Under the pieces are notes generated by a model. The model was not told the DNA's origin and did no database searches. It worked only from the letters and a program-made list of their open reading frames with translations. Shown one piece after another: positions 2,053-58,589 of a stretch of DNA of 64,000 nt. Source of the DNA: a virus. How positions within the stretch are numbered: position 1 is the first letter of the stretch; every line of letters begins with the position of its first letter. The stretch spans positions 1,459 to 65,458 of the IMG/VR virus record IMGVR_UViG_3300048577_000531. One strand, given 5' to 3'. Made by a program: the position numbers and the translations under genes.

Positions 2053-2906
2053 CACACCCTCCCTTGATAGCCCTTGAAGCGCGGGGTGAAGGTAGTGGAG
2101 TTGGCCGACGGCGTCGCATCGCTCAAGGTCTGCAGTTGCCACCACAAGCGCTTGCCGCCCGTCTCAGGATTGCAGATCAGCACCGTGGGGCCATCCGGAA
2201 TCAGGACGCCTTTGGCGCCATCACTGAATGCCGTCATCGTGCCGGAGAACGATCCAACCCATCCGGCACGCTTTTGGGACCATGCGGCGTTGTCGCCCGC
2301 GCCGACGCCGGTACTAGCGGTCGGGTCGCTGTTGAACACATGCACGCGGACGGTCTTGCCGCCAAAGCCGGTATCCGTCGTGTCGAGCAAGACCTGCGTG
2401 ACATTGACCGGGTCGTCATTGGTGTCACTCACCGTCACCGGCAGCGCCGTCACTGATCCCGCTGTCGCGTTGTCCGACACGGAATCATTGGCGCTGTACG
2501 GCGTCGTGTTTGTCGGCCGGGTCAGTGTCGTCCCGGCGATGTTAAAATGCCGGGTATTGATTTTGCCGATTTCGGCGGGGACATCCGGCGCCGTGATGAA
2601 CGACAGCTTGTCGCCTGGATTGCAGGTGATGGCGCGCGGACCGCCGGGATCAACTCTCAGTCCATTCGACGTTGCCGTCGGGTCGGCTCCCCATGCGACA
2701 TAGACCGGCCCGCCGAGCGCCGTGACGACGGCATAGTATCGGCGAGAGTCCGGGCCCGTCGGGACGACGGGACGGCTTTCGGCCGCTGTCGCCACGCCAG
2801 TGACGGCGAGCCCACGCACCGGCGTTGCCGGCTGTCCATCGTTGAGGCCTTCGTTGAAATTCCCGTACAACGGAAACACGAATTCGACGTCGACTGTCGT
2901 CGCCAT
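2052..2906 (-). CDS. Hypothetical phage structural-like protein
   Basis: 284 aa, Thr/Gly/Ala-rich beta-type composition, TRPTNTTPYSANDSV motif; translationally coupled to the SGNH gene. Confidence 0.6.
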   Translation of the reverse strand: MATTVDVEFVFPLYGNFNEGLNDGQPATPVRGLAVTGVATAAESRPVVPTGPDSRRYYAVVTALGGPVYVAWGADPTATSNGLRVDPGGPRAITCNPGDKLSFITAPDVPAEIGKINTRHFNIAGTTLTRPTNTTPYSANDSVSDNATAGSVTALPVTVSDTNDDPVNVTQVLLDTTDTGFGGKTVRVHVFNSDPTASTGVGAGDNAAWSQKRAGWVGSFSGTMTAFSDGAKGVLIPDGPTVLICNPETGGKRLWWQLQTLSDATPSANSTTFTPRFKGYQGRV

Positions 2907-3017
2907 GGTGAGTGATCCTGATGAGGGTGGAGAAAGGTGATGAGGGTCACGCGCCCGCGCCGAGGTGGCGCAGGGTCATGAGGATGGGTTCCCGTGCTGG
3001 TGGAGGATGGCTGCCAG

Positions 3018-3422
3018 TCAGTGCGGCATGCTATCGAGCTTGTTTTCGAGCCGCGCGAAGCGGGTATCGATCTTCTTGTCCATGGTGTCGATCACGTGGC
3101 CGAAGCGATCGATGGCTTCGAGAACGGCTTCATTCCGGGCGTCGTTGCGAGCGACGGCGACATCGAGGGTGTGGAGCTTGGCGACGACGTTGTCGCGTAT
3201 CCAGAATTCGACCTGTTCCACCTTTTCATTGGACGCTCTGATCGTCTCGCCGACCTCGCGGCGGACCCTGTCATCCTCCCCCTTGAATTCCTCGCGAAGT
3301 TCGTCCTTCACCGCCTCGAACCTCCCTCGCAACATCCAGATGGTGCCCCCGACGGAGAACCCGATGGTGATGAGAATGCCGATCGCCGTCAGGGCCGGCC
3401 CCGCCCAGGTCGCCCCACCCAT
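3018..3422 (-). CDS. Membrane-anchored coiled-coil protein (lysis-region, holin-like)
   Basis: Single N-terminal TM helix followed by a charged helical region. Confidence 0.5.
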   Translation of the reverse strand: MGGATWAGPALTAIGILITIGFSVGGTIWMLRGRFEAVKDELREEFKGEDDRVRREVGETIRASNEKVEQVEFWIRDNVVAKLHTLDVAVARNDARNEAVLEAIDRFGHVIDTMDKKIDTRFARLENKLDSMPH

Positions 3423-3552
3423 TTACTCCACCTCAACCAGTTCGGTGATCTGATCGCTCGCCATCGTGAAGTCCCCTTATGGCTTCGTGGTGGAAGTGGT
3501 CGGCCGATCGGTTGCGCCCGATCGGCCGGCCCGCTGTTGTTGTTGGAAGGCG

Positions 3553-3861
3553 CTACGATCCCGGCTTGTCGTCCGACGGCGCCCCGAAGAAGAACACGAA
3601 CGGCCGCCACAGCGCCTGCGCCTTGTTCGCCGGCCATTTTGCCGCCAGCAGACTCCAGAAGCCGAAGGCGCCTGGCCCGTCCATGTCATCGGGCAGCCGA
3701 CCGGCGGAACGTGGCCGGAGCTGATAGCTCATGACCTCGCCGTCATTGTCGATCCAGTCGCGCCGCCAGATGAATTCCGCCCGCATCAGGCCGAAGAACC
3801 AAGGCACGATGCGGCGATCGTTCGTGCGATACCATTTCGACCAGTGGGCCATTGGCATCAC
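3553..3861 (-). CDS. Hypothetical protein
   Basis: Trp/Phe-rich 102 aa ORF; start overlaps the upstream stop. Confidence 0.45.
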   Translation of the reverse strand: MMPMAHWSKWYRTNDRRIVPWFFGLMRAEFIWRRDWIDNDGEVMSYQLRPRSAGRLPDDMDGPGAFGFWSLLAAKWPANKAQALWRPFVFFFGAPSDDKPGS

Positions 3862-4127
3862 CTAGGCTTGATGTTGAGCGGTTGGCCTGCCGGCGCCGCC
3901 GCGCCCTTGCAGGCCTTGACGACGTCCCGTTGCTTGATGGCGACCACGCCCATTTCCCGCAGGGGATGACCGGCCGGGAGCTTGCGCAGTTCCGCCGCCG
4001 CCGCCTGTTGCTTGGCCGCCGGCCATGCCACCACGGGCGGGCAGACGACCGCCGTCGGCTGCGGCGGCAGCTCGCACGTGATCGAGGCTATGATGAAGGC
4101 GAAGCCCGTGCAGGTGATCGAAGCCAC
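3858..4127 (-). CDS. Putative o-spanin (Rz1-like)
   Basis: Small Cys/Pro-containing protein (CPPVVAW...C) directly after the i-spanin candidate; lipobox not canonical. Confidence 0.45.
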   Translation of the reverse strand: MASITCTGFAFIIASITCELPPQPTAVVCPPVVAWPAAKQQAAAAELRKLPAGHPLREMGVVAIKQRDVVKACKGAAAPAGQPLNIKPR

Positions 4128-4128
4128 G

Positions 4129-4377
4129 TCACCCCTCCCCGCGGTCGAGGCGTGCGATCACGTCATCCTCGCCGAGGGGTTTGGCGGCCTCCTCGGCGAT
4201 CTGCTCGGCGGCCCGCCGGCCGGCGATAGCCTGGTCGCGCTCCGCCGTCACCTGTCCGAGCTCACGCTGCGCCTGCGACGCCTGCCAGGAATTCCAGGCA
4301 TCGAGAAGAAGCTTGCCGAGGAAGCCGAGCAGCAGCCCGGCCCCCTCTTTGCCCAGCCATGCCAGGACCGCGCTCAT
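4129..4377 (-). CDS. Putative i-spanin (Rz-like)
   Basis: N-terminal TM, Ala/Gln/Arg coiled coil, ends DDVIARLDRGEG; lysis cassette position. Confidence 0.55.
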   Translation of the reverse strand: MSAVLAWLGKEGAGLLLGFLGKLLLDAWNSWQASQAQRELGQVTAERDQAIAGRRAAEQIAEEAAKPLGEDDVIARLDRGEG

Positions 4378-4378
4378 G

Positions 4379-4885
4379 TCAGGTGGCCGGCTGCGACGGC
4401 GTCGTCGGATTGGCGACGTCCAGGGCGACGGCCTGCGCTTGCGCGACGCTCGGCACCTTGGGGATGTAGTCGACGATCATCTCGGCGACGCGCGCCGGCG
4501 TCAGGCCGAAGTACTTGTAGATTTGCGGGATCGCGAGCAGCGCCGCATTGGCCGCTGCCGCGAGGCCTTCGCTCGCGACGTCGATCTTGACGCCCTGCAG
4601 CTTGACGTCGCCCTGCGCGACCAGCGAGGCCGCTTGCCGCTGGAGGAACGTGGTCAAGCCGTCGCGGTAGCTGTCCTCGATGCTGATCCCGAGCTTGGAC
4701 TGGATTGTGTACCAGAGCCAGCCGACGGCAATCGAGATCACCCCGCCGATCACGGCGTTGATGGTCTCGCCGAAGGCGGACGAGATCGCGCCGCCGATAT
4801 CGATCGAGAAAGCGAAGGCGGGATTGACGAGAAGCAGGCACGCAAAGCCGAGCGCCATCGCGCCGGCGAGAAACCGGAACTTCAT
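4379..4885 (-). CDS. Putative holin
   Basis: Two hydrophobic segments; lies between endolysin and spanin candidates. Confidence 0.5.
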   Translation of the reverse strand: MKFRFLAGAMALGFACLLLVNPAFAFSIDIGGAISSAFGETINAVIGGVISIAVGWLWYTIQSKLGISIEDSYRDGLTTFLQRQAASLVAQGDVKLQGVKIDVASEGLAAAANAALLAIPQIYKYFGLTPARVAEMIVDYIPKVPSVAQAQAVALDVANPTTPSQPAT

Positions 4886-49862: not shown

Positions 49863-50123
49863 TCATCCGACCTGCTCCGGGGTGAGATTTGCTTTTTCCG
49901 GTCGCGGAATGTCTGCCGGCCACGGCGCGTCCTTCGGCCAGTGGTCGGAGAACCACGTGATCGCCTCTTCAAGGCGCCTCACGCCAATGTCGCGGCCCGC
50001 CCGAAGCTCCCGAAGGCGCTTACCGTCCTTCATCACCCGAGTTGAGATGGTCGCCTCAGCAAGGCCCGTCGCCTTGCGGTAAGCGTCCACGAGAGAGAGG
50101 AAATGGTCGAGGCGAATCACCAT
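49863..50123 (-). CDS. cro: Cro-like repressor
   Basis: LVDAYRKATGLAEATISTRVMKDGKRLRELRAG...WFSDHWP; divergent from cI. Confidence 0.85.
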   Translation of the reverse strand: MVIRLDHFLSLVDAYRKATGLAEATISTRVMKDGKRLRELRAGRDIGVRRLEEAITWFSDHWPKDAPWPADIPRPEKANLTPEQVG

Positions 50124-50139
50124 GGCGGCGACGAATATG

Positions 50140-50177
50140 CGGTACATGTACCGTTTTCGTCAACGGTGCATGTACCG
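50140..50177. promoter_or_regulatory. Operator pair between cro and cI
   Basis: CGGTACATGTACCG (50140-50153, perfect palindrome) and CGGTGCATGTACCG (50164-50177); minus-strand TTGACG at 50163-50158. Confidence 0.85.
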
Positions 50178-50213
50178 CTAGCCTGGGGATTGTTGCGCGG
50201 TGAATATCCCGCA

Positions 50214-50915
50214 ATGCCCACAGCATCAAACCGCACGATTTTGGCGCGAATTCACGAAGCCCTTGAAAGGAAAGGGATGTCGGCCCGCGCCGCCTCTCTC
50301 AAGGCGGGTTTAGGGGCGGATGCCATCCGCAACTTGGAGCGCGACGAGGCAATTTTACCGCGCATCGACACCCTGGAGCGGCTTGCGCCTGTTCTCGGCT
50401 ATGACCCTGCCGTTCTGGCCTGGGGAGCCGCCCGCAATACCCGGCGCAAGGCAAACGCCCCGAAATCCGTTGCCGTTATTGGCGAAGTTGCCGCCGGCCT
50501 GTGGCATGACACCGAGGGAAGAGACGAGCGCGAATACCCCCAGCATCCAATTTCCTTCGACGAGCGGTACCCGCCAGAAGCTCAATACGGGCTCGTGGTG
50601 ACGGGAACCTCCATCAACCGAGTGGCCGCTCCAGGCGAAATCCTTCACTGCGTCGACGTCGCGATTGCTGGGCTAAGTCCGAGCGAGGACGATTTGGTGA
50701 TTATCGAGCGGCGCCGAGCGCAAGCCGGCCAAAAGGAGGTCACCGCAAAGCGGTTTCACCGCGGCCGAAACGGCAAGATCGAGCTGCGCCCGGATTCGAC
50801 CGACAAGCGATGGTCCGAGCCTGTGGTTTTCGATCCGCGCCAGGCGCCCGACGGCGAAGAAGTTGCGGTAATCGCCCTCGTGATCGGCATATATAAGCCC
50901 CTGACTCGACCCTAA
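50214..50915 (+). CDS. cI: CI-type repressor, HTH plus S24 peptidase
   Basis: HTH_XRE N-terminus; GEVAAG cleavage site, TGTSI (Ser), VTAKR (Lys). Confidence 0.93.
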   Translation: MPTASNRTILARIHEALERKGMSARAASLKAGLGADAIRNLERDEAILPRIDTLERLAPVLGYDPAVLAWGAARNTRRKANAPKSVAVIGEVAAGLWHDTEGRDEREYPQHPISFDERYPPEAQYGLVVTGTSINRVAAPGEILHCVDVAIAGLSPSEDDLVIIERRRAQAGQKEVTAKRFHRGRNGKIELRPDSTDKRWSEPVVFDPRQAPDGEEVAVIALVIGIYKPLTRP

Positions 50916-54400: not shown

Positions 54401-55204
54401 GGCACACCGGACGGCGATGTATCGCGCCGCCGAAAACGAAGAATACCAGGATGCAGCCGCCCACCAAGCTCGCATCGAAGAATTGAGCGATATCGCCAAG
54501 ACGCCGCTTCCTGGACCTGACGAGGATGCCGCCCATGCTGAACCCTGATTCCAAATCCATCCCCCTCGCCACCATGAGCGAAGTGCAGGAGAAGACGGCG
54601 GATCAATTCATTCGCGCTACGGCGGTCGGCACCAACCTGCGCGCCTTTGCGAAGATTGCGGACCAGCGCGGAAACGTCACCGAGGCTGCACGTTATAGAA
54701 CTGTGGCCAGGATCATCGATCGCCAGCGCTATCTACTCACCCGCCTCTCCCACTTCATGCGCCGCTGCAATCCCAACAGGCTCAAGCCTGGAGAGGAACA
54801 AGTCTCCGACGGCGAATGGAACGCAATGGAGGCGGAGGTGAACGCGGCGATCGGCGGGGCGCCGAACCGCACGGAGATGGACCATGGCTGACCCCGCAAC
54901 CGCCCTCGCGTTTCAGATCCCGTCGCTCCCCTTCTCGATCGCCGCTGCGAGGATCGAGCAGCGTCTCGCGATCGAAACGACCGCCCGCAAGATCGATCGC
55001 GGCGCCCTCCATCTGGTCGACGACGACGATAACCCGCTCCACTCACTTTCATCCTCGCTGATGTACGGCAGCCCTCCCGATGCCGGTGACGGCGACGTCT
55101 ACAGCCTTCGAGTTCCATGCTGCCCGGCACGTCCGGAAGGACTGACATGTGAGCCGATGGATACGAAGCCGGTGTGTCGCTGGTGCGGGGCGAGGTGGGT
55201 CTAG
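51499..55204 (+). other. Run of about 12 small co-oriented early-gene ORFs of unknown function
   Basis: Tightly coupled ORFs, e.g. 51499-51735, 52040-52285, 52282-52548, 52822-53280 (Cys-rich), 53524-54117, 54324-54548 (UVR-like), 54884-55204. Confidence 0.7.
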
Positions 55205-56504
55205 GTGGCCGCCTATTACAACGAGATCGATCCCTATGCAGCGCAATGGCTTCGCAACCTCATCAGCGCCGGACACATCGCCCCTGGTGACGTCGACGAG
55301 CGGAGCATCGTCGACGTCCGAGCCGACGACCTCAAGCCCTACACCCAATGCCATTTCTTCGCCGGCATCGGCGGATGGAGCCTCGCCCTACGTCTCGCCG
55401 GATGGCCTGACGACCGACCTGTTTGGACAGGCTCTTGCCCCTGCCAACCGTTCTCAGCCGCCGGAAAAGGCAAGGCGGCCGATGACGAACGCCACCTGTG
55501 GCCTGCGTGGTTTCCTCTCATCCGCGAGCGGCGCCCTGCAATCGTTTTTGGAGAGCAGGTTGAGGCGGCGGTTGGATGGGGCTGGCTCGATCTTGTTTTC
55601 GCTGACCTGGAAAGCGAGGGCTACGCCTGCGGGGCGGCCGTATTGCCAGCTTGCAGCGTCGGCGCGCCGCACATCCGACAGCGATTGTGGTGGGTGGCCG
55701 ACGCCGACACGAGACGAGGCAGGCGGGACGCCGGAACAGTTCTTGGCGCGCAAGGCGAAGCTGGACGGCGCGTGCGGGGTGACGTTGACGGCGCTCAATC
55801 TGGTGGTGCAACTCGCGACTTGGCCGACGCCCCAGGTGAGCGACGGGACGGGAGCGAACTCGCCGGAGCGTCTGCAAGAGCGGCGGGAGAACGCACCGAA
55901 GCGAGCGAGCGGCGGACCTCCGGGATTTGCGAACCTTCGGGATGCAACCCAACTGGCAACATGGCCGACACCCCGATTTTCGGACGCAGACAAGAACGTG
56001 AGGACGCCGGCCGGCGCGGCGAAGGAACTGGAACGCAAGCCACACGGGGCGGACCTGGTGACGGTTGCGCTGGCGGTTGGATGGGCGACGCCGCAAGCGC
56101 GGGACCACTTCCCAGCGCACACGGACGAGTACCTGGAGAGGAAGAGGAAGCAGCACAACAATGCTGGCGGGATGGGCGGCGACTTGCCGGACCAAGCGGC
56201 GCGGATAGCGCCTTGGGCGACTCCGACACATCGCGACTATCGCCACGCAAACGCGGAATCATACGAGAAGAGAGGGGGGGGCATGAAGGGCGAGCAGTTG
56301 AACAACCAGGTCATTCACCATGGTCCGACCTCGAATGGCTCCCCTGCAGCGACGGAAAAGCGCGGCCAACTAAACCCGGCCTTTTCCCTCTGGCTCATGG
56401 GATACCCGGACGCGTGGGAAAGCTACGCGCCGCAGGCAATGCGATCGTCCCGCAGGTCGCGGCCGAGTTCATTGCCGCCGTCATCGGAGATGATCAACCC
56501 ATAA
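55149..56504 (+). CDS. Overlapping +1-frame partner of the C5 MTase (WPTP repeats, motif-IX-like end); start uncertain
   Basis: 451-codon same-strand open frame; five W(P/A)TP...D repeats; GQLNPAFSLWLMGYPDAW. Confidence 0.7.
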   Translation: MSRWIRSRCVAGAGRGGSRWPPITTRSIPMQRNGFATSSAPDTSPLVTSTSGASSTSEPTTSSPTPNAISSPASADGASPYVSPDGLTTDLFGQALAPANRSQPPEKARRPMTNATCGLRGFLSSASGALQSFLESRLRRRLDGAGSILFSLTWKARATPAGRPYCQLAASARRTSDSDCGGWPTPTRDEAGGTPEQFLARKAKLDGACGVTLTALNLVVQLATWPTPQVSDGTGANSPERLQERRENAPKRASGGPPGFANLRDATQLATWPTPRFSDADKNVRTPAGAAKELERKPHGADLVTVALAVGWATPQARDHFPAHTDEYLERKRKQHNNAGGMGGDLPDQAARIAPWATPTHRDYRHANAESYEKRGGGMKGEQLNNQVIHHGPTSNGSPAATEKRGQLNPAFSLWLMGYPDAWESYAPQAMRSSRRSRPSSLPPSSEMINP

Positions 56505-56536
56505 CCCCCATCTCCCCACAGAGAGAGGAAGGATAG
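55205..56536 (+). CDS. C5-cytosine DNA methyltransferase, catalytic frame
   Basis: FFAGIGG (I), SCPCQPFS (IV), FGEQV (VI), PHIRQR (VIII), LRAAGNAIVPQVA (X). Confidence 0.92.
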   Translation: MAAYYNEIDPYAAQWLRNLISAGHIAPGDVDERSIVDVRADDLKPYTQCHFFAGIGGWSLALRLAGWPDDRPVWTGSCPCQPFSAAGKGKAADDERHLWPAWFPLIRERRPAIVFGEQVEAAVGWGWLDLVFADLESEGYACGAAVLPACSVGAPHIRQRLWWVADADTRRGRRDAGTVLGAQGEAGRRVRGDVDGAQSGGATRDLADAPGERRDGSELAGASARAAGERTEASERRTSGICEPSGCNPTGNMADTPIFGRRQEREDAGRRGEGTGTQATRGGPGDGCAGGWMGDAASAGPLPSAHGRVPGEEEEAAQQCWRDGRRLAGPSGADSALGDSDTSRLSPRKRGIIREERGGHEGRAVEQPGHSPWSDLEWLPCSDGKARPTKPGLFPLAHGIPGRVGKLRAAGNAIVPQVAAEFIAAVIGDDQPITPISPQREEG

Positions 56537-56538
56537 AT

Positions 56539-56775
56539 ATGGGCTGCCATCCGAACATCACGGCGACCAAGTTTCCGAAGCAATCGAAGGTCGGCGAGCC
56601 GTGCAAGGTGTTGTTTCACTACGGCGCCGGCGGCGAGGCGCGGGGCGTGATCGTCCGCGACGACGTCGGGGAACCATGGATCGGCATCATCAAGCTCGAT
56701 GACGGCCGGCACATCCTGTTCACCGAATGCCAGTATCAGCCGCTGTCGCTGGCGTTGCCGAAAGGAAGCGCCTGA
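56539..56775 (+). CDS. Hypothetical phage protein (SH3-like)
   Basis: RBS GAGAGGAAGG; GVIVRDD..EP...IKLDDGR. Confidence 0.6.
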   Translation: MGCHPNITATKFPKQSKVGEPCKVLFHYGAGGEARGVIVRDDVGEPWIGIIKLDDGRHILFTECQYQPLSLALPKGSA

Positions 56776-56777
56776 CG

Positions 56778-57164
56778 ATGACCCTCACCTCCCGCCAGCG
56801 CGAAGAGCTTTACGACCTCTGCCGCGGCGAGGCGGAATATCCGACGTGCAACATTTGCGGCGGATTGATCCTGAAGGGGCAGCGCTGGCACGAGAGCCAC
56901 AATCCCTTGCTGCCTGGGGCGATCGGCGGCGAGGTCACCGGCATCGCACACGAGCGCTGCAACTTGCGCCACAACAACCTTCACGACACCCCGCTTGTCG
57001 CCAAGGTCAAGCGCCAACGCCAGCAGGATATCGGCGCCTACGTCAAAGCGCCGACGTCGCGGCCGATGCCGGGCTCCAGGCGCAGCGGAATCAAGATGTT
57101 CATGGACCGCCGCCGCCAGCCCATCTGGCGAGACAGCGGGCGGCCGGTCGGGAGGGAGAGATGA
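56778..57164 (+). CDS. HNH-like protein
   Basis: CNICG...WHESH...AHERCN..HN. Confidence 0.7.
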   Translation: MTLTSRQREELYDLCRGEAEYPTCNICGGLILKGQRWHESHNPLLPGAIGGEVTGIAHERCNLRHNNLHDTPLVAKVKRQRQQDIGAYVKAPTSRPMPGSRRSGIKMFMDRRRQPIWRDSGRPVGRER

Positions 57165-57484
57165 ACGCACCTTTCACCGACACCCCGGTCAAGTGCTCGT
57201 TTCTTCTCGATCACCGCTACACGTCGACGACGATTGAACTGTGGGTGTGGCAGAATTTGATGCGGATGGCCGGCGAGCGTGGCTTGTCGCGGCAGGCCTT
57301 GATCCAGGAGATTCACGACCGCCGGCGGCGTGGCGTTCGCCTGTCGGTCGCGCTTCGCGCCGCCGTAGCGGAAGATCTCATGAGAAAGGCGTTCGGCGAG
57401 GCATCGCCGACGTTAGTGAGGTGTTTTTGCCAGTCGACGCGCCCCGTCGACAAACCGAAGGAGACTTGTAATGCGTACTCCTGA
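57161..57484 (+). CDS. Ribbon-helix-helix (RHH_4-like) DNA-binding protein
   Basis: TTIELWVWQNLMRMAGERGLSRQALIQEI...LSVALR. Confidence 0.7.
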   Translation: MNAPFTDTPVKCSFLLDHRYTSTTIELWVWQNLMRMAGERGLSRQALIQEIHDRRRRGVRLSVALRAAVAEDLMRKAFGEASPTLVRCFCQSTRPVDKPKETCNAYS

Positions 57485-58589
57485 CATCGAGATCCTGAGT
57501 AACCCTTTCATCCTTCATCCAAGCGGCCGTATCGGCGCCGACATGGAGACGATCACCCGGGTAATCGCCGAAAGCCCGATCACGGCGCCGACCGGAGTCG
57601 TCTTCGACGGCACGCTGGCGAGCCTGATCCGCTGCTACCAAGCCGATCCGGACTCGCCGCTCAAAGACACCCGTTACAAGACGCGCCTTTTCTACGACTC
57701 GATCTGCCGCCGGCTGACGGCTGATTGCGGGAGCGAGCGCCTTGCGGACTTCGACGTCCGCCGCGTCAAGCGTCTTTATGAGGGATGGTCGGCCGACGGA
57801 AAGGTGACGATGGGCCACACCTGCGTCGCCATGCTGCGCATCGTGCTGACCTACGGCACCACCTATCTGCGCGATCCGGCGTGCCGCGACCTTCGCCTGC
57901 TGCTGCACGACATGCGGTTCAAGATGCCGGCGCCCCGGCGCGAACGACTCACCGCCGAGCAGGCGACGCTCATCCGCGCGCGGGCGCACAAGGTCGGTCG
58001 TCACAGCGTAGCGCTCGCCCAGGCGATCCAATTCGAGTGCATCCTTCGCCAGAAGGACGTCATCGGCGAATGGGTGCCCGATAGCGAGCCGGTCGCCTCC
58101 GACATCCATCACGGCGGCTTCAAATGGATCAGGGGCGCTCGCTGGAGCGAGGTCGACGCGGATCTCGTATTGCGCCACACGACGTCGAAGAAGCTTAAGG
58201 ACGTCGAGATTGATCTGACGCTCGCCCCAATGGTGATGGAGGAGATCGATCTTTTGCCGACGTCGGTGCAAGCGCGCCGCGGCGATGGTGGCCCAATCAT
58301 CGTCGCCGAGAAGAGCGGGTTGCCGTGGCTTTCTGGCGAATTCAGGCGCATCTGGCGTCTGATCGCGCGCGACTGCGGCATCCCCGACAGCGTTCGCAAC
58401 ATGGATACCAGAGCCGGCGCGATCACCGAGGCGACAGAAGCTGGCGCGCCAATGCTTGCGATCAAGCAGGCCGCTACGCATAGCCAGATTTCAATGACTG
58501 AACGCTATGCGCGGCCAGGCCCGAAGGCGTCAGCAGAGGTCGCGCGCTATCGCGTCGCGCATCGAAACGTCGGCAGCAGTATGAACTAG
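57471..58589 (+). CDS. Second tyrosine recombinase (internal)
   Basis: ILRQKDVIGEW (R), TTSKK (K), RNMDTRAGAITEA (R), ATHS (H), TERY (Y). Confidence 0.85.
   Translation: MRTPDIEILSNPFILHPSGRIGADMETITRVIAESPITAPTGVVFDGTLASLIRCYQADPDSPLKDTRYKTRLFYDSICRRLTADCGSERLADFDVRRVKRLYEGWSADGKVTMGHTCVAMLRIVLTYGTTYLRDPACRDLRLLLHDMRFKMPAPRRERLTAEQATLIRARAHKVGRHSVALAQAIQFECILRQKDVIGEWVPDSEPVASDIHHGGFKWIRGARWSEVDADLVLRHTTSKKLKDVEIDLTLAPMVMEEIDLLPTSVQARRGDGGPIIVAEKSGLPWLSGEFRRIWRLIARDCGIPDSVRNMDTRAGAITEATEAGAPMLAIKQAATHSQISMTERYARPGPKASAEVARYRVAHRNVGSSMN

Follow-up and report, generated by a model that had tools for sequence, protein, structure and literature searches.

Two overlapping open reading frames

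The window, i.e. the whole 64,000-nt stretch of viral DNA analysed here, carries two long open reading frames that overlap on its plus strand, and an earlier note on this DNA had interpreted them as a split C5 methyltransferase. Frame A, the alpha gene (55205..56536, 443 aa), starts with a GTG codon immediately 3' of the TAG codon that ends the upstream ORF and is preceded at about 8 nt by a GAGGTGG Shine-Dalgarno sequence. Frame B, the beta open frame in the +1 register (55149..56504), comprises 451 codons from a GTG at 55149, and about 1.3 kb are open simultaneously in both frames. When compared with the PHROG collection, the two match separate families, phrog_363 (1e-83) and phrog_1008 (1e-27), each labelled DNA methyltransferase. 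A tRNA scan of the window returned none.

The alpha frame

The N-terminal 177 residues of alpha (55205..55735, plus strand) are predicted with a pLDDT of about 90 to form the catalytic domain of a C5 methyltransferase. Based on the sequence and an alignment with M.HhaI (71-170), all motifs that the earlier note had assigned to frame A could be located: motif I as FFAGIGG (aa 51-57), motif IV as SCPCQPFS (aa 77-84; 55433..55456), motif VI as GEQV (aa 116-119), motif VIII as R158-x-R160 and motif X as GNAIVPQV (aa 411-418; 56435-56458). The catalytic cysteine C80 of motif IV is invariant among 44 homologues, as are E117, R158 and R160. In this proteobacterial subfamily, a YYNEID...N segment resembling motifs II/III lies upstream of motif I. 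The Pfam family PF00145 matches alpha with 57.5 bits (cut-off 22), the match being confined to aa 75-165, and TIGR00675 scores 33.6, under its cut-off of 100.65. Foldseek retrieved M.HhaI (E 7e-8), DNMT1 and M.HaeIII in alignments of about 170 columns, the E-values ranging from 7e-8 to 1e-6; only the catalytic half of M.HhaI has a counterpart in the alpha fold.

Residues 178-367 (55736..56305), the linker, are predicted to be disordered (pLDDT 30-40); the earlier note had described the middle of frame A as low in complexity and devoid of motif IX. From motif VIII to the C-terminal hairpin, nothing ordered in alpha could act as a recognition domain or motif IX, and the arrangement of both elements in one chain between motifs VIII and X is not found in it. 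The protein concludes with a C-terminal hairpin (aa 377-389) followed by the motif X helix (together 56306..56533).

The beta frame

Beta has three candidate starts: GTG 55149, which has a GGAAGGA 7 nt 5' of it, ATG 55236 (422 aa), whose Shine-Dalgarno sequence is weak (-3.0 kcal/mol), and ATG 55482. Past the last B-frame stop, the next ATG falls at codons 23-37 after the YYNE anchor in 40 of 49 loci; codon 33 after this anchor is ATG in 39 of the 49 and is frequently preceded by GAAAGGAG. The ATG kept in these 39 homologues is missing from beta of the window, which, together with the weak Shine-Dalgarno sequence of ATG 55236, counts against the two-subunit model proposed below.

Counted from ATG 55236, beta begins with a leader of 94 residues (55236..55517) that is predicted to be disordered (pLDDT <50) and is unconstrained in sequence, yet free of stops. 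An unconstrained, disordered leader of about 90 residues is an odd translation product and likewise counts against the model. The leader is followed by a helix and β-hairpin (aa 96-143; 55521..55664; pLDDT 76-90) and by five W(P/A)TPxxxD modules (55695..56260), presumed to be the target-recognition part. Across homologues their number varies from one to five and changes by entire in-frame units. Tandem Repeats Finder detected nothing in 55100-56600, and the modules repeat at the protein level only. The C-terminal sequence of frame B, GQLNPAFSLWLMGYPDAW (56364-56417), contains a motif IX-like block, LNPAFSLWLMGYPDAW (56370..56417), whose DNA reads KPGLFPLAHG in alpha. The motif IX-like ending that the earlier note had recognized in the +1 frame is indeed present, but this frame carries far more, namely the five modules and the confidently predicted helix-hairpin. 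The latter and the motif IX helices are the predicted ordered parts of beta.

Pfam and NCBIfam searches with beta did not assign a family; a sub-threshold match to TEX13B_C was dismissed as spurious. Among PDB sequences, beta has no match at E <= 10. A comparison of the beta model with 48,161 PDB representatives gave a best Z of 4.4 that covered only the helix-hairpin, without a methyltransferase small domain; this structure search says little because the model is of low confidence (mean pLDDT 56).

Conservation and selection

Interruption of the +1 frame in homologues, which the earlier note had named as evidence that would speak against dual coding, is the exception: 102 of 112 full homologous loci with GC contents of 42-71% keep both frames intact, and the exceptions examined are mostly single indels that displace both frames alike. 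Two loci (L030 and L094) were excluded by motif pattern alone, and another (L038) is a partial relative. The pairing of A and B is obligatory over about 100 loci from hosts of three bacterial phyla, and the nested layout also occurs in phages of Paenibacillus (45% GC) and Mycobacterium. Loci in distant phages are matched by A and B alike, for example in Ralstonia phage YO163_3 (A, 46% identity, 1e-84; B, 37% identity, 5e-39).

Segment-wise dN/dS values from 21 independent pairs reveal that the constrained frame alternates along the gene from A to B and back to A. In the catalytic domain of alpha, frame A is under purifying selection (dN/dS 0.14-0.33). Over motifs I-IV, dN/dS is 0.14 in A versus 1.67 in B, the latter value being that of the beta leader. 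The stretch encoding the helix-hairpin of beta overlaps motifs VI-VIII of alpha and is under constraint in both frames (A 0.33, B 0.88). Subsequently, the relation is inverted, with 0.47 in B versus 1.16 in A for the modules and 0.26 versus 1.03 for the motif IX-like block, before motif X and the C-terminal part of alpha return to 0.20 in A versus 1.35 in B. The alpha linker is a passenger reading of the beta modules, i.e. it is stop-free but unconstrained in sequence. The same mosaic is obtained with a second set of pairs that reuses the near-identical loci L077-L081, and the codon-position entropy pattern is consistent with it. In epsilon15, WLMG of B is unchanged, while A goes from LAHG to LVDG.

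Predicted complex

The earlier note had suggested structure prediction of the heterodimer as a check. The predicted alpha-beta complex reached ipSAE values of 0.90, 0.89 and 0.90, as compared to 0.00 for the best of three controls; that mark was attained for 58 of 80 solved complexes and for 2 of 110 mismatched pairs. Contact agreement between runs was at least 45% and the pLDDT of the partners at least 52. In the model, the helix-hairpin of beta contacts alpha 141-159, and the motif IX-like helix of beta contacts alpha 407-417, i.e. the motif X helix. The predictor may in part be recalling the packing of motifs IX and X from solved single-chain enzymes. Moreover, alpha and beta have nucleotides in common, which could in principle lead to correlated alignment columns, though the rows of the two input alignments, both built in this analysis, are out of register.

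These contacts bear on the alternative that both proteins are made, but that beta fulfills a separate function, for example in DNA binding or anti-restriction, while alpha acts alone or with a host factor. Such an independent role would suit a protein without Pfam or NCBIfam family whose likeness to motif IX is a short pattern. It would, however, leave alpha without any ordered segment to serve as recognition domain or motif IX, and it is at odds with the obligatory pairing across host phyla as well as with the predicted packing of the motif IX-like helix against the motif X helix. We regard this alternative as unlikely.

Depletion of stop codons

In 49 non-redundant loci, synonymous permutation within regions yielded an expectation of 57 B-frame stops over the catalytic domain of alpha and of 129 A-frame stops in the middle, and none was observed in either case. 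Permutation over the whole gene gave 0 versus 112 and 0 versus 163 expected, respectively. For the window alone, the A-frame middle contains 0 versus 4.0 expected stops (p = 0.0075), and the corresponding result for B-frame stops over the domain of alpha is weak (0 versus 1.5 expected, p = 0.09). The double open frame is no accident of a GC-rich genome, because the 102 intact loci extend over a wide range of GC contents and because stops are absent where many are expected.

The same data can be set against a single chain that is produced when ribosomes shift frame twice in a programmed manner, by +1 after motif VIII and by -1 between motifs IX and X, which would restore the canonical succession of motifs I-VIII, recognition domain, IX and X. 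The order of the selected segments follows precisely this succession, and the spacing from GYPDAW to GNAI would be short but conceivable. Yet, such a mechanism leaves the middle of A and the first ~120-165 codons of B unused, although exactly these parts are depleted of stops, and frame A runs uninterrupted even through the 159 codons of an HNH-like insertion that two loci carry (L019 and L100). In addition, the junctions are devoid of a conserved slippery heptamer or homopolymer (in-phase heptamer in 1 of 49 loci; A/T runs >=6 in 0-1 of 49), and the zone between motifs IX and X comprises just ~9-12 nt that are not conserved. The double frameshift, which had been offered in the earlier note as an alternative, thus finds no support in junctions or open frames and is very improbable. 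That frame B is a shadow ORF without function, opened by GC richness and seemingly conserved via frame A, is hardly credible: the window has 65% GC with long ORFs in several frames of the region (three on the minus strand), and conservation of B over the N- and C-terminal parts of alpha is indeed a by-product (dN/dS B 1.35-1.67), but the idea is contradicted by stop depletion and by the dN/dS values of the middle and motif IX, where B is constrained and A is not, by the open B frame in copies with 42-55% GC (L031, L003, L125) and by module numbers that change in complete in-frame units.

Proposed two-subunit enzyme

Taken together, the two frames most likely encode the catalytic and the DNA-recognition half of one methylase. 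The heterodimer suggested in the earlier note gains support from the retention of both frames, the A-B-A selection and a complex prediction that passed its controls, and the locus is probably a prophage C5 DNA methyltransferase of two separately translated subunits, alpha and beta. The open and conserved frames, the mosaic of selection and the predicted order and disorder are compatible with this two-subunit model; from them we infer separate translation, assembly of the chains, their division of labour and the biological role.

In this model, the locus specifies an orphan C5 DNA methyltransferase whose two polypeptides derive from overlapping frames of one DNA stretch. Alpha would provide the AdoMet-binding and catalytic domain with motifs I-VIII, followed by a linker of ~190 disordered residues whose sole task may be to remain stop-free, with the hairpin and the motif X helix at its C-terminal end. 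Translation of beta could start anywhere from ~60 nt 5' to 120 nt 3' of the alpha start codon. Its unconstrained leader would then be followed by the helix-hairpin, docked onto the motif VII-VIII strands of alpha, by W(P/A)TPxxxD modules, one to five in number and five in the window, as presumed readers of the DNA target, and by the terminal motif IX-like helix, which would pack against the motif X helix of alpha. Cytosines in the DNA of phage and host would be the methylation targets of the resulting heterodimer, which presumably serves to escape restriction.

Annotation and implications

A large phage family shares the nested layout, and its annotation usually lists a single frame or treats the gene as broken. 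The beta profile matches 32,269 cluster representatives (E <= 0.001), and all named proteins among the 120 best matches are entered as 'hypothetical protein'. In RefSeq, an intact E. coli prophage copy appears as two pseudogene fragments. The earlier expectation that standard annotation would miss the dual coding therefore holds usually, but not throughout, since two phage records list both nested ORFs as methyltransferases. In the literature library searched, a description of the nested gene in the present phage family was not found, which does not disprove that one exists.

If both products are made, the locus would be a clear example of two bacterial-virus genes that overlap on the same strand for a kilobase, and a very widespread one. 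Its A-constrained and B-constrained segments along with two doubly constrained patches would offer a natural system for studying two proteins in one DNA sequence. There are practical consequences as well: methylome or anti-restriction work that clones a recoded version of the annotated frame A alone would lose beta, and tens of thousands of frame-B proteins stand in the databases without a family name. It is a tentative and rather doubtful extension that this family might comprise more long genes nested on the same strand than any other in phages and prophages, with a linker that purely keeps the frame and with the one to five modules acting as target-recognition units that can be added, dropped or exchanged, their number and identity setting specificity or multi-specificity, and with homing-endonuclease insertions being tolerated if both frames stay open.

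Comparison with known systems

The single-chain enzyme M.HhaI (PDB 2i9k, 1mht) shares with alpha the catalytic fold, motifs IV-VIII and motif X, whereas its small domain with the recognition domain and motif IX is absent from the ordered structure of alpha. The methyltransferases of Bacillus phages SPR and phi3T are multispecific and carry tandem recognition domains on a single chain in one frame. By architecture, the present phage enzyme resembles them in that the tandem modules separating motif VIII from motif IX vary in number, but here two frames would be used and the part played by the W(P/A)TP modules is presumed. M.AquI is encoded by two consecutive ORFs that overlap briefly, and motifs IX and X are both found on its beta chain. 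Like M.AquI, the present enzyme would be split into two polypeptides within the variable region that follows motif VIII and precedes motif IX; in contrast to it, the genes are nested and motif X is back in alpha. M.AquI, from Agmenellum quadruplicatum, was reportedly described as a split C5 methyltransferase by Karreman and de Waard in 1990.

The closest layout is that of M.EcoHK31I (YGGCCR) from E. coli HK31. This C5 methyltransferase consists of two polypeptides, the second of which is encoded in another frame wholly within the alpha gene (PMC2836561). The earlier note had described this precedent correctly; the requirement for association of both polypeptides for activity was demonstrated for M.EcoHK31I only (PMC2836561). 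Set beside that description, the present locus likewise has a second open frame nested in the alpha gene and, judging by motif pattern, selection and predicted packing, motif IX in beta with motifs I-VIII and X in alpha. The beta chain of M.EcoHK31I is small (61 aa), whereas those predicted here comprise 200-450 aa and have an additional helix-hairpin. While the alpha chain of M.EcoHK31I holds the recognition domain, recognition-like modules here reside in beta, and no ordered or constrained segment takes that place in alpha, whose middle is, in contrast, an unconstrained linker, with an overlap of ~0.6-1.3 kb. Finally, M.EcoHK31I is part of a restriction-modification system, whereas the present gene is a prophage orphan. 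If the two-subunit model holds true, the layout of M.EcoHK31I would no longer be a curiosity but a common design.

Two overlapping frames in one gene

The earlier note had described a C5 DNA methyltransferase gene split across two same-strand reading frames, the +1 frame being open for 451 codons, and both ORFs are indeed present in the window with near-complete overlap. Frame A (alpha; 55205-56536, +) has a GTG start and encodes 443 aa, and frame B (beta; 55149-56504, +) is the 451-codon +1 frame. The assignment of motifs I (FFAGIGG), IV (SCPCQPFS), VI (GEQV), VIII (RQR) and X (GNAIVPQV) to frame A was confirmed from the sequence itself and from the alignment to M.HhaI. The Pfam match to PF00145 covers only aa 75-165, the segment aligned to M.HhaI 71-170. 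The C-terminal end of frame B is GQLNPAFSLWLMGYPDAW (56364-56417). PHROG places the two frames in distinct families, phrog_363 for A (1e-83) and phrog_1008 for B (1e-27), both labelled DNA methyltransferase. In the proteobacterial subfamily of alpha, a motif II/III-like segment (YYNEIDPYAAQWLRNLI; aa 1-22, 55205-55270 in the window) lies ahead of motif I, whereas in the versions from Paenibacillus and Mycobacterium phages motif I comes first, as in the canonical order. The N-terminal strands may thus have been locally permuted.

Conservation of both frames

With either frame as tblastn query, the same loci were found in distant phages, such as Ralstonia phage YO163_3 (A 46% identity, 1e-84; B 37% identity, 5e-39) and, likewise matched by both, Burkholderia, Erwinia and Cylindrospermopsis phages and Salmonella phage epsilon15. 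A search with frame A yielded 119 homologous loci (numbered with the prefix L), 112 of which contain the full gene. In 102 of these 112, at GC contents of 42-71%, frame A runs uninterrupted between motifs IV and X and the +1 frame is open too, so the frame on which the earlier note's reading hinges is not interrupted. Its C-terminal LNPxxSxWLMGxPxxW lies, in most loci, exactly 65 nt upstream of the motif X GNA. Most of the exceptions viewed in detail (L012/L097, L036, L037, L088 and L111) carry a single indel that shifts both frames together; these are either defective copies or errors of sequencing. Only the motif pattern makes L030 and L094 exceptions, and L038 is a partial relative.

Synonymous-codon permutation, confined to each region and applied to 49 non-redundant loci, predicted 57 frame B stops over the catalytic domain of A and, from permuted B codons, 129 frame A stops across the middle, while none was observed in either case. 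The looser whole-gene permutation gave 0 versus 112 (B) and 0 versus 163 (A). For the window alone, the regional values are 0 versus 1.5 (B; p = 0.09) and 0 versus 4.0 (A; p = 0.0075). These data bear on the rival explanation that two frameshifts generate a single chain instead of two polypeptides. Such a chain would need neither the middle of A nor the first ~120-165 codons of B, yet both are strongly stop-protected; conserved slippery heptamers or homopolymer runs are found at neither hypothetical junction, and in L019 and L100 frame A stays open through an HNH-like insert as far as motif X. A frameshifted chain is hence very improbable.

Nei-Gojobori dN/dS values from 21 independent homologue pairs reveal that selection switches from A to B and back to A along the gene, with two patches in which both frames are constrained. 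The values for A and B are 0.14 and 1.67 over motifs I-IV, 0.33 and 0.88 over motifs VI-VIII (beta's helix-hairpin), 1.16 and 0.47 over the W(P/A)TP modules (repeated units of beta, presumably for target recognition), 0.65 and 0.71 in the 25 codons before motif IX, 1.03 and 0.26 in the motif IX block, and 0.20 and 1.35 in the motif X region. Codon-position entropies agree with this switch. In epsilon15, A has LVDG in place of LAHG through a substitution silent in B, which retains WLMG.

Start of beta

Counted from the YYNE anchor, which precedes motif I in alpha, B-frame stops in the 49 loci reach codon 39 at the latest and are absent from there through the rest of the catalytic domain. The first ATG past the last B-frame stop falls at codon 23-37 in 40 of them, and 39 have an ATG at codon 33, formed by alpha Asp-Val as GAT-GTN and often preceded by GAAAGGAG, itself formed by alpha Asp-Glu-Arg-Ser. 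The codon-33 ATG is absent from the window, where the open B frame extends further upstream. Candidate starts (all +) are GTG 55149 with GGAAGGA 7 nt upstream, ATG 55236 with a weak Shine-Dalgarno sequence, and ATG 55482. The GTG is situated inside an upstream 106-aa ORF (54884-55204, +), whose TAG stop directly abuts the alpha GTG (TAGGTG), suggesting translational coupling of alpha to this ORF.

Predicted structures and complex

Predicted alone, alpha is confident over residues 1-177 (pLDDT ~90) and disordered over 178-367 (30-40), followed by a hairpin (377-389) and a helix (416-427); the match of its ordered part to M.HhaI, DNMT1 and M.HaeIII is confined to their catalytic half (E to 7e-8, ~170 columns). 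In beta, numbered from ATG 55236, residues 1-94 are predicted to be disordered, helix 96-116 and hairpin 121-143 are confident (pLDDT 76-90), confidence is intermediate for the W(P/A)TP modules, and short helices (381-397) lie over the motif IX block. Prediction of the heterodimer, a check proposed in the earlier note, used alpha and beta 83-422 with an own alignment for each chain and gave ipSAE values of 0.90, 0.89 and 0.90, versus 0.00 for the best control; contacts agree by at least 45% between runs, with partner pLDDT of at least 52. In the calibration, run without such alignments, 58 of 80 solved complexes reached the same mark, as did 2 of 110 mismatched pairs. Contacts are predicted between alpha 141-159 and the beta hairpin, and between alpha 372-429 (hairpin, motif X helix) and beta 323-400 (motif IX block). 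The predictor may partly be recalling IX/X packing from solved single-chain enzymes. Although the two chains share nucleotides, paired covariation is an unlikely cause of the score, since their alignment rows are not in register.

Distribution, insertions and genomic surroundings

Among 1.84 billion cluster representatives, the beta profile matched 32,269 at E ≤ 0.001, of which 8,932 reach E ≤ 1e-30. None of the 120 best matches has a Pfam domain, and the named ones among them are called 'hypothetical protein'. Paenibacillus phage Likha (45% GC) and Mycobacterium phage Royals2015 have the nested arrangement as well. The expectation that standard annotation would miss the dual coding holds in part: NCBIfam has no model for beta, and RefSeq divides the intact E. 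coli prophage locus L129 (NZ_CP041110.1 1933222-1934391), in which alpha (~390 aa) and the 343-codon beta frame are both open, into two pseudogene fragments, one labelled 'missing C-terminus' and the other 'missing N-terminus'. It fails for the records of Escherichia phage K1ind2 and Likha, in which both nested ORFs are annotated as methyltransferases, so the layout has already been seen by some annotators.

Some loci harbor endonuclease-like insertions. In L019 (2552-3028) and L100 (2387-2860), an HNH-like ORF of ~159 codons follows in frame B right after the beta stop, between motifs IX and X; its matches to Pfam HNH and HNH_3 (E 1e-4 to 5e-3) fall short of the cut-offs. The insert end duplicates the beta tail (EWDxCAPTA), and frame A is open across the entire insert (522 and 506 aa). 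L127 (alpha 2470-4419; called beta 2501-4786, P0020, 761 aa) has a ~150-codon insertion between alpha motif VI and the following WLD segment with both frames open; its frame B translation resembles an HNH_3-type endonuclease (SLDRLD...GY...N) incorporated in frame in beta, and Pfam gave no match at E ≤ 0.1.

The source record of the window is an IMG/VR provirus, and the window encodes a CI-like repressor (50103-50915) and an integrase (57471-58589). As no restriction-endonuclease family was detected among the neighbouring ORFs scanned, the methyltransferase was treated as an orphan enzyme. A 145-aa ORF (56727-57164, +) between methyltransferase and integrase displays CxxC and His-rich patterns (CNICGG..., HERCNLRHNN); Pfam gave nothing for it at E ≤ 0.1. 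On the strand opposite the methyltransferase gene (55454-56262, minus strand), three ORFs of 155-242 codons were taken for GC-rich shadow frames.

Comparison with known systems

Taken together, the open frames, the stop depletion, the dN/dS mosaic and the complex prediction lend computational support to the heterodimeric reading of the earlier note, and alpha and beta are probably separately translated subunits of one methyltransferase. The precedent it invoked is sound: in M.EcoHK31I, beta is wholly encoded in another frame of alpha, with motifs I-VIII plus X, as well as the recognition domain, in alpha and motif IX in beta (PMC2836561). Our literature search found no paper describing the nested gene of this phage methyltransferase family. 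Its layout would be a variant of the M.EcoHK31I-like nested design and as such of an already known kind. In both, the genes are nested and motifs IX and X are placed alike, but in the phage family the recognition-like modules reside in beta, and the middle of alpha appears to be a mere linker.
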